From Escherichia coli (GTDB taxonomy: Bacteria; Pseudomonadota; Gammaproteobacteria; Enterobacterales; Enterobacteriaceae), in assembly GCF_003334405.1 (NCBI RefSeq), contig NZ_QOWM01000001.1: a stretch of DNA of 64,000 bases. One strand, given 5' to 3'. The notes beneath the pieces were generated by a model, which was not told the origin of the DNA, made no database searches, and saw nothing but the letters and a program-made list of their open reading frames with translations. Positions 5,578 to 5,998 of the stretch are shown here, one piece after another. The position numbers and the translations under genes were made by a program. Numbering within the stretch: position 1 is the first letter of the stretch; each line of letters begins with the position of its first letter.

Positions 5578-5784
5578 TCAAATTTTTCCAATCGCCACTA
5601 ATTGTTCCATGCACATTTGTAGTAAAAACAGTGGACTGCCTTCTACCGGCTTTTCTTTAGCCAGCAACGAAATCTGTCGATAGAAAGTTGGTTCGAGAGG
5701 AACGGAACACAATTCACCTGCAATGCTTTTCAGCGTTAACTCTGGTTGTAAGGCGATGCCTAATCCCTGTCGAATAAAATTCAT
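5578..5784 (-). pseudogene. yfaH: LysR-family regulator C-terminal fragment (yfaH-like remnant)
   Basis: 68-aa ORF resembling only the C-terminal effector-domain end of a LysR-type regulator; no HTH domain present. Confidence 0.5.
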
Positions 5785-5998
5785 CGCTGTATCCGCCTGA
5801 TTAAATTCACATTTTATCTGCTGGGCGCACTATTAGTGGTAGTGGCTGGTGGAATCTATGCGCTGCAAATGAAGGGTAAAAGCGGTGTCAAGCTAGTAGT
5901 GGCAAAAGAAATTCATTAATACGACACGTTTCATTAAGATTTTCCTCAGGTAACCACCTATAGTCATTGTCGTTAATAAAAATGACAGGCGATAGGGT

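Follow-up and report, generated by a model that had tools for sequence, protein, structure and literature searches.

The interval between glpQ and inaA

Between the stop codon of glpQ and the start codon of inaA in E. coli lies an interval of 462 bases (positions 5537-5998 of the window, i.e. the whole stretch of 64,000 nucleotides that was analysed), from which a 68-codon ORF named yfaH (b2238) can be read, and the question which this locus raises is whether this ORF specifies a small protein of its own or is what remains of a larger gene. The interval is 100% identical to that of E. coli K-12 MG1655 and of many other strains, and its neighbouring ORFs are glpA, glpT, glpQ, inaA, yfaE, nrdB, nrdA and yfaL, with the window running in the reverse of the MG1655 numbering. 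In an earlier note on this DNA, the 68-aa ORF and a short hydrophobic frame on the opposite strand were taken together as the relic of a regulator and its divergent target gene. The results described below lead us to regard positions 5578-5919 as a non-functional deletion scar of a LysR/MFS gene pair, with a probability of about 0.95. As such, yfaH is already known as a pseudogene and the feature is an ordinary one, to which small additions are made here, namely how far the LysR stump reaches, the assignment of the second fragment to an MFS transporter, the 1879-bp junction at TTTATCTG, the polarity given by outgroups and the allele frequencies. The features concerned are the following.

5544-5571: hairpin with a perfect 12-bp stem, located between the glpQ stop (5534-5536) and the stop of the LysR remnant (5578-5580); borders the scar and is not part of it
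5578-5820, minus strand: 3' remnant of a LysR-family regulator, 80 codons plus stop, equivalent to residues 213-292 of the intact 292-aa protein
5578-5784, minus strand: yfaH (b2238) ORF of the ORF list, 68 aa with an ATG start, inside the LysR remnant
5813-5820, no strand: deletion junction with one copy of the octamer TTTATCTG
5815-5919, plus strand: 3' remnant of an MFS transporter, 34 codons plus stop, equivalent to residues 363-396 of the intact 396-aa protein
5920-5998, plus strand: 79 bases upstream of inaA, kept in K-12-like, O157 and EcN alleles; outside the scar

Two abutting remnants of a LysR regulator and an MFS transporter

The minus-strand frame at 5581-5820 aligns without gaps to the LysR regulator of E. 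coli O157:H7 with 69 of 80 residues identical (86%; BLASTP, E 1e-47), and all 80 residues fall on positions 213-292 of the intact protein, in agreement with the proposal that the 68-aa ORF resembles the C-terminal end of such a regulator. This homology runs 12 codons (36 bases) upstream of the yfaH ATG, as far as 5820, beyond which the same frame is interrupted by stops and runs antisense to the MFS fragment. The intact O157:H7 regulator comprises an HTH_1 domain (PF00126) at residues 2-62 and a LysR_substrate domain (PF03466) at residues 87-266. With only residues 213-292 kept, HTH_1 is absent from the stump, as had been noticed earlier, and the effector domain is incomplete, just 213-266 and the C-terminal tail remaining, such that on both counts the fragment falls short of a functional LysR protein. 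What it does retain is LysR homology at the syntenic position between glpQ and inaA, and PGAP, in a resequenced MG1655 record, describes 5578-5820 on the minus strand as 'LysR family transcriptional regulator, incomplete, missing N-terminus'.

On the plus strand, the frame at 5815-5916 is identical in 32 of 34 residues (94%; BLASTP, E 1e-18) to the C-terminus of the O157:H7 MFS transporter, again at the syntenic position, and covers the end of the last hydrophobic/membrane segment and the cytoplasmic C-terminal tail. The intact transporter matches MFS models of NCBIfam as well as PF07690, and a functional member of this family has about 12 transmembrane helices, while the fragment holds the last 34 of 396 residues and offers an internal GTG at 5836 as its only start. 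From this GTG the ORF list gives a 27-aa ORF (5836-5919, without any ATG), MVVAGGIYALQMKGKSGVKLVVAKEIH, and PGAP labels 5815-5919 on the plus strand 'hypothetical protein, incomplete, missing N-terminus'. The hydrophobic frame pointed out before is hence real, has no ATG and can now be assigned to the MFS family, but it begins at 5815 rather than at 5836, and no spacer separates it from the regulator stump: the LysR and MFS fragments abut each other with a 6-base overlap at the deletion junction.

Comparison with the reference annotation of K-12 is consistent with these assignments. In NC_000913.3 a pseudogene yfaH (b2238) of 207 bp is placed at 2349687-2349893, which is exactly window 5578-5784 on the minus strand, so that the sequence and coordinates are identical and the pseudogene status had already been recorded. 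However, the MG1655 annotation covers only the 68-codon ORF beginning with ATG, whereas the homologous stump has 80 codons, and the adjoining MFS fragment (5815-5919) is unannotated in NC_000913.3 and appears only as 'hypothetical protein, incomplete' in PGAP records. An entry as the remnant of an MFS transporter could be added for this second fragment.

The intact gene pair and the direction of change

The corresponding glpQ-inaA interval of O157:H7 strain FRIK804 contains an intact gene for a 292-aa LysR protein on the minus strand, a divergent gene for a 396-aa MFS protein on the plus strand and an extra orphan gene, and in strain STLEFF_29 the intact pair is found between glpQ and inaA without the extra gene. 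The O157:H7 pair (WP_000176738.1 and WP_000660231.1) has the same position and orientation as the two K-12 fragments, with 86% and 94% amino-acid identity over the parts that are kept; what K-12 has lost in comparison is the HTH domain and the greater part of the effector domain, 362 codons of the transporter and the conserved control region.

When the intact regulator was used as the query, orthologues came up in E. albertii, Salmonella enterica and Citrobacter, at 90%, 80% and 76-78% identity, respectively, and in further members of the Enterobacteriaceae. The first three share the gene order nrdA-nrdB-yfaE-MFS-LysR-glpQ-glpT-glpA. Since the identity of the regulator falls with phylogenetic distance, as expected for vertical orthologues, the pair is ancestral at this locus, and the intact pair in the outgroups makes the K-12 scar the derived, deleted state. 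An intact divergent pair beside glpQ, both in other E. coli and in these outgroups, is the outcome of the comparative synteny suggested in the earlier note, and it substantiates the view of a relic of a regulator with its divergent gene. The converse direction, according to which the K-12 arrangement is ancestral and O157:H7 and other strains assembled or received their full-length LysR and MFS genes afterwards, could appeal to the scar being the commonest state (3105 of 5426 genomes). Yet fragments without N-termini cannot be precursors of intact genes, the outgroups carry the intact pair beside glpQ with identities that track phylogenetic distance, and taking a single contiguous block between direct repeats out of an intact allele gives the K-12 sequence. 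The synteny of the outgroups thus refutes K-12 as the ancestral state, and the probability left to it is close to nil.

The intact genes resemble no characterised family closely enough for an assignment by the NCBIfam models, because the best matches of the regulator (GltC, CidR, AlsR and CynR) and the generic MFS models nearest to the transporter (PRK05122 and PRK12382) all score far below their cut-offs. LysR-type regulators usually regulate their own synthesis and control a divergently transcribed gene. The intact alleles conform to this classical arrangement, with divergent genes separated by an intergenic region of about 150 bp, in which blocks are conserved across E. coli, E. albertii, Salmonella and Citrobacter. 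One such block, CTATTAGAGAAATTAATCGTTTTAA, adjoins the LysR start and contains an ATTA-N7-TAAT dyad of the T-N11-A type; it lies within the block missing from K-12, and the window keeps none of these elements. As judged from the gene arrangement, the lost regulator would have controlled the transporter.

Two further observations concern the surroundings of the intact pair. In Salmonella, E. albertii and Citrobacter, the MFS gene adjoins yfaE directly with inaA (5999-6649 in the window) absent between them, so that among the genomes inspected inaA occupies this position in E. coli only. In STLEFF_29, loss of the usual stop (GKI followed by a stop is changed to GKFDMRQDGA followed by a stop) extends the LysR gene (L004 4020-4919) from 292 to 299 aa and into the region of the glpQ terminator hairpin.

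A probable single deletion between short direct repeats

The junction between the two remnants is defined by the octamer TTTATCTG, which is an 8-bp direct repeat present twice in intact alleles, in the LysR gene and in the MFS gene at a distance of 1879 bp, and only once in K-12. Alignment of both edges revealed that K-12 lacks one contiguous block of 1879 bp with respect to both O157:H7 and STLEFF_29: its sequence follows the LysR side as far as ...ATTCACATTTTATCTG and the transporter side from TTTATCTGCTGGGCGCAC... onwards. What is missing are the first 212 or so codons of LysR, the shared intergenic region and about the first 362 codons of the transporter. The same junction was observed in 7/7 sampled scar alleles, which are up to about 4% divergent elsewhere, and this identity in seven divergent alleles implies that the deletion arose once. 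It occurs with an AT-rich insert in strain EC19 and without it in K-12.

The simplest reading of this junction is a single deletion between short direct repeats. A mobile element as the origin of the scar (an IS that inserted and then excised or gave rise to a deletion beside it), or else a series of deletions, was considered as well, and IS activity does occur here, as IS1 is inserted at the locus in some strains (H31; H66-H68). Nevertheless, alignment of the K-12 junction with intact alleles disclosed no IS sequence, inverted-repeat end or filler DNA; a single clean copy of the octamer is left, the same octamer being found at both edges of the missing block, and the junction is identical in all sampled scar alleles. 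Because the junction is clean, the IS-mediated origin was rejected, and a mobile element or a series of deletions is in our view improbable. Thus, the earlier description of genes deleted down to fragments holds insofar as a block of 1879 bp is gone, with the nuance that the fragments point to one clean deletion with subsequent decay by point mutations rather than to progressive erosion.

On the preferred reading of one deletion, the ancestor possessed a LysR-type regulator and a divergent MFS transporter with a common control region, flanked by glpQ on one side and by the nrdAB-yfaE cluster on the other. On the way to K-12, a deletion of 1879 bp between the two copies of TTTATCTG would have eliminated in one step the HTH domain and the greater part of the effector domain of the regulator, along with the entire control region between the genes and 362 codons of the transporter. 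Slippage or microhomology, independent of RecA, is its most likely cause. The last 80 regulator codons on the minus strand would thereby have been joined directly to the last 34 transporter codons on the plus strand, neither fragment being able to serve its former function, and the locus may serve as an example of the one-step loss of a regulator/target gene pair followed by decay.

Allele states in the E. coli population

The distribution of these states was surveyed in 5426 complete E. coli genomes, with the following outcome.

Scar state, at least 80% of the K-12 scar sequence: 3105 of 5426 genomes
Undeleted state, at least 80% of the 1879-bp block absent from K-12: 1217 of 5426 genomes
Nissle (EcN)-type spacer, near-total loss: 1057 of 5426 genomes

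Together these account for 5379 genomes, and the remainder includes IS1 insertions and other partial deletions. In the EcN-type spacer, alignment is limited to the final 19 nt or so of the MFS gene and the stretch preceding inaA; for the other approximately 100 bp (L003 5898-6000), no resemblance to LysR, to MFS or to the AT-rich insert could be detected. This allele also has a different hairpin after glpQ. The bases at 5920-5998 are present in every allele type, even in alleles without the whole LysR/MFS pair.

Decay is visible in undeleted alleles of some strains too, with an internal stop in the LysR gene of 23CRST050 (L005 5013-5891), a frameshift in the orphan ORF and IS1 within the LysR/MFS block (H31). 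Such decaying undeleted alleles suggest that E. coli has lost the pair several times independently, and the LysR/MFS pair is evidently dispensable in this species. The polymorphism of intact, scar and completely lost states provides a convenient lineage marker within E. coli.

The AT-rich insert itself, about 1.7 kb in length with 31-34% GC, is located in FRIK804 between the glpQ hairpin and the LysR stop (L002 4289-6003). It is not in the window, where the equivalent site is at about 5572, and it carries a 355-aa orphan ORF with no Pfam, NCBIfam or PADLOC match, which is frameshifted or interrupted by IS1 in some strains. The insert is found in 1046 of 5426 genomes and accompanies intact (O157) as well as deleted (EC19) LysR/MFS alleles.

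Decay of the regulator stump and the status of the yfaH ORF

Whether the yfaH ORF has acquired a role after the deletion can be judged from its start codon, its mode of evolution and its integrity in other strains. The ATG at 5782-5784 corresponds to ATC (Ile) in intact alleles of E. coli and in E. albertii (AISF) and to Leu in Salmonella (ALNF); it is present in 7/7 sampled scar alleles and in none of the intact ones. Over the 80 retained codons, dN/dS values calculated according to Nei-Gojobori are 0.79 for K-12 vs O157 and 1.45 for K-12 vs STLEFF_29, with only about 15 substitutions underlying these estimates, as compared to 0.19 for the two intact E. coli alleles with each other and 0.05-0.10 when intact E. 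coli is paired with the E. albertii or Salmonella gene. Several K-12 changes fall on positions that are invariant in all five intact sequences, such as those converting KYEFNHPDTA to KCEFNQADTA and GIALLPEL to GIALQPEL. Furthermore, among natural strains with the identical junction, Sx181-0-1 has a CAG to TAG change, creating a stop at codon 6 of the ORF ('internal stop' in PGAP), and GPEC1366 and isolate 48 have a 1-bp deletion within it ('frameshifted' in PGAP), leaving the 68-aa ORF intact in K-12 and in 4/7 sampled scar alleles. Truncation relative to the intact orthologues of relatives and outgroups, combined with relaxed selection and disabling mutations, identifies the sequence as a pseudogene. 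From these roughly 15 substitutions, the regulator stump appears to evolve neutrally, and the ATC to ATG substitution that created yfaH would have occurred in the course of this drift.

The competing explanation is that YfaH is a genuine small protein, made of 68 LysR effector-domain residues equipped with a start codon, which could for example interfere with LysR oligomerisation. It draws on the constancy of the ATG in sampled scar alleles and its absence from intact ones, on an NCBIfam equivalog model for the ORF and on a transcript signal that changes upon perturbation of the Cpx system: by qRT-PCR, the yfaH signal was 7.7-fold up in a delta-cpxR strain over-expressing NlpE (PMC9600279). 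This signal speaks for some transcription across the region and is no demonstration of a protein. As for the model, the ORF does score 164.8 bits over residues 1-68 against NF007272/PRK09729 'hypothetical protein' (cut-off 139); however, the intact LysR protein passes it as well, with 140.8 bits at residues 225-290, which means that the model only recognises the LysR C-terminus and that membership is without functional information. An AGG-containing stretch is found about 7 nt upstream of the ATG, and a crude consensus scan, by which the known inaA promoter region was also missed, detected no sigma-70-like promoter on either strand of 5450-6050. Against a genuine small protein stand, in addition, the codon-6 stop and the frameshift in natural strains with the same scar, the dN/dS range of 0.8-1.45, the substitutions at residues invariant in intact orthologues, the complete loss of the sequence in 1057 genomes and the decision of the NC_000913.3 curators to mark yfaH as a pseudogene. 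We therefore hold a genuine small protein to be very improbable, and it is just as hard to credit that the free 68-aa LysR C-terminal piece was co-opted, e.g. as a LysR modulator or a Cpx-responsive small protein. The earlier note had named a complete, conserved small protein with its own expression signals as the finding that would overturn its reading; with an ATG that is not ancestral, an ORF broken in other strains, dN/dS around 1 and no promoter consensus, that objection fails on each of these points.

A literature search by gene name found no functional account of yfaH or b2238, and in one study (PMC2714960) yfaH was deleted and replaced merely to provide a selectable marker in linkage with gyrA. 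The leftover ORF persists in databases as a 'hypothetical protein' family (PRK09729/NF007272), and a practical consequence of the favoured interpretation is that yfaH should not count as a gene in expression or regulon studies of K-12.

Sequences bordering the scar

The hairpin at 5544-5571, which has been kept beside the scar, is predicted to fold as RNA with a dG of -22.5 kcal/mol and a z-score of -5.55 vs shuffled sequences, and it is probably a terminator common to the convergent glpQ and LysR genes. A simple terminator scan missed it because it has no T run. In an Rfam scan of 5400-6100 no family scored above threshold; the match of RmaA over the glpQ hairpin reached 24 bits vs a gathering score of 57 and was treated as a chance match.

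On the far side of inaA, the nrdA-nrdB spacer (8100-8320) contains REP-like repeated palindromic sequences, which stretch the mechanically derived nrdB ORF to 453 aa and yield the repeated translations 'RLIRPT' and 'RIRH'. An 11-codon gene, yoaM (b4779), is annotated within this spacer in NC_000913.3.
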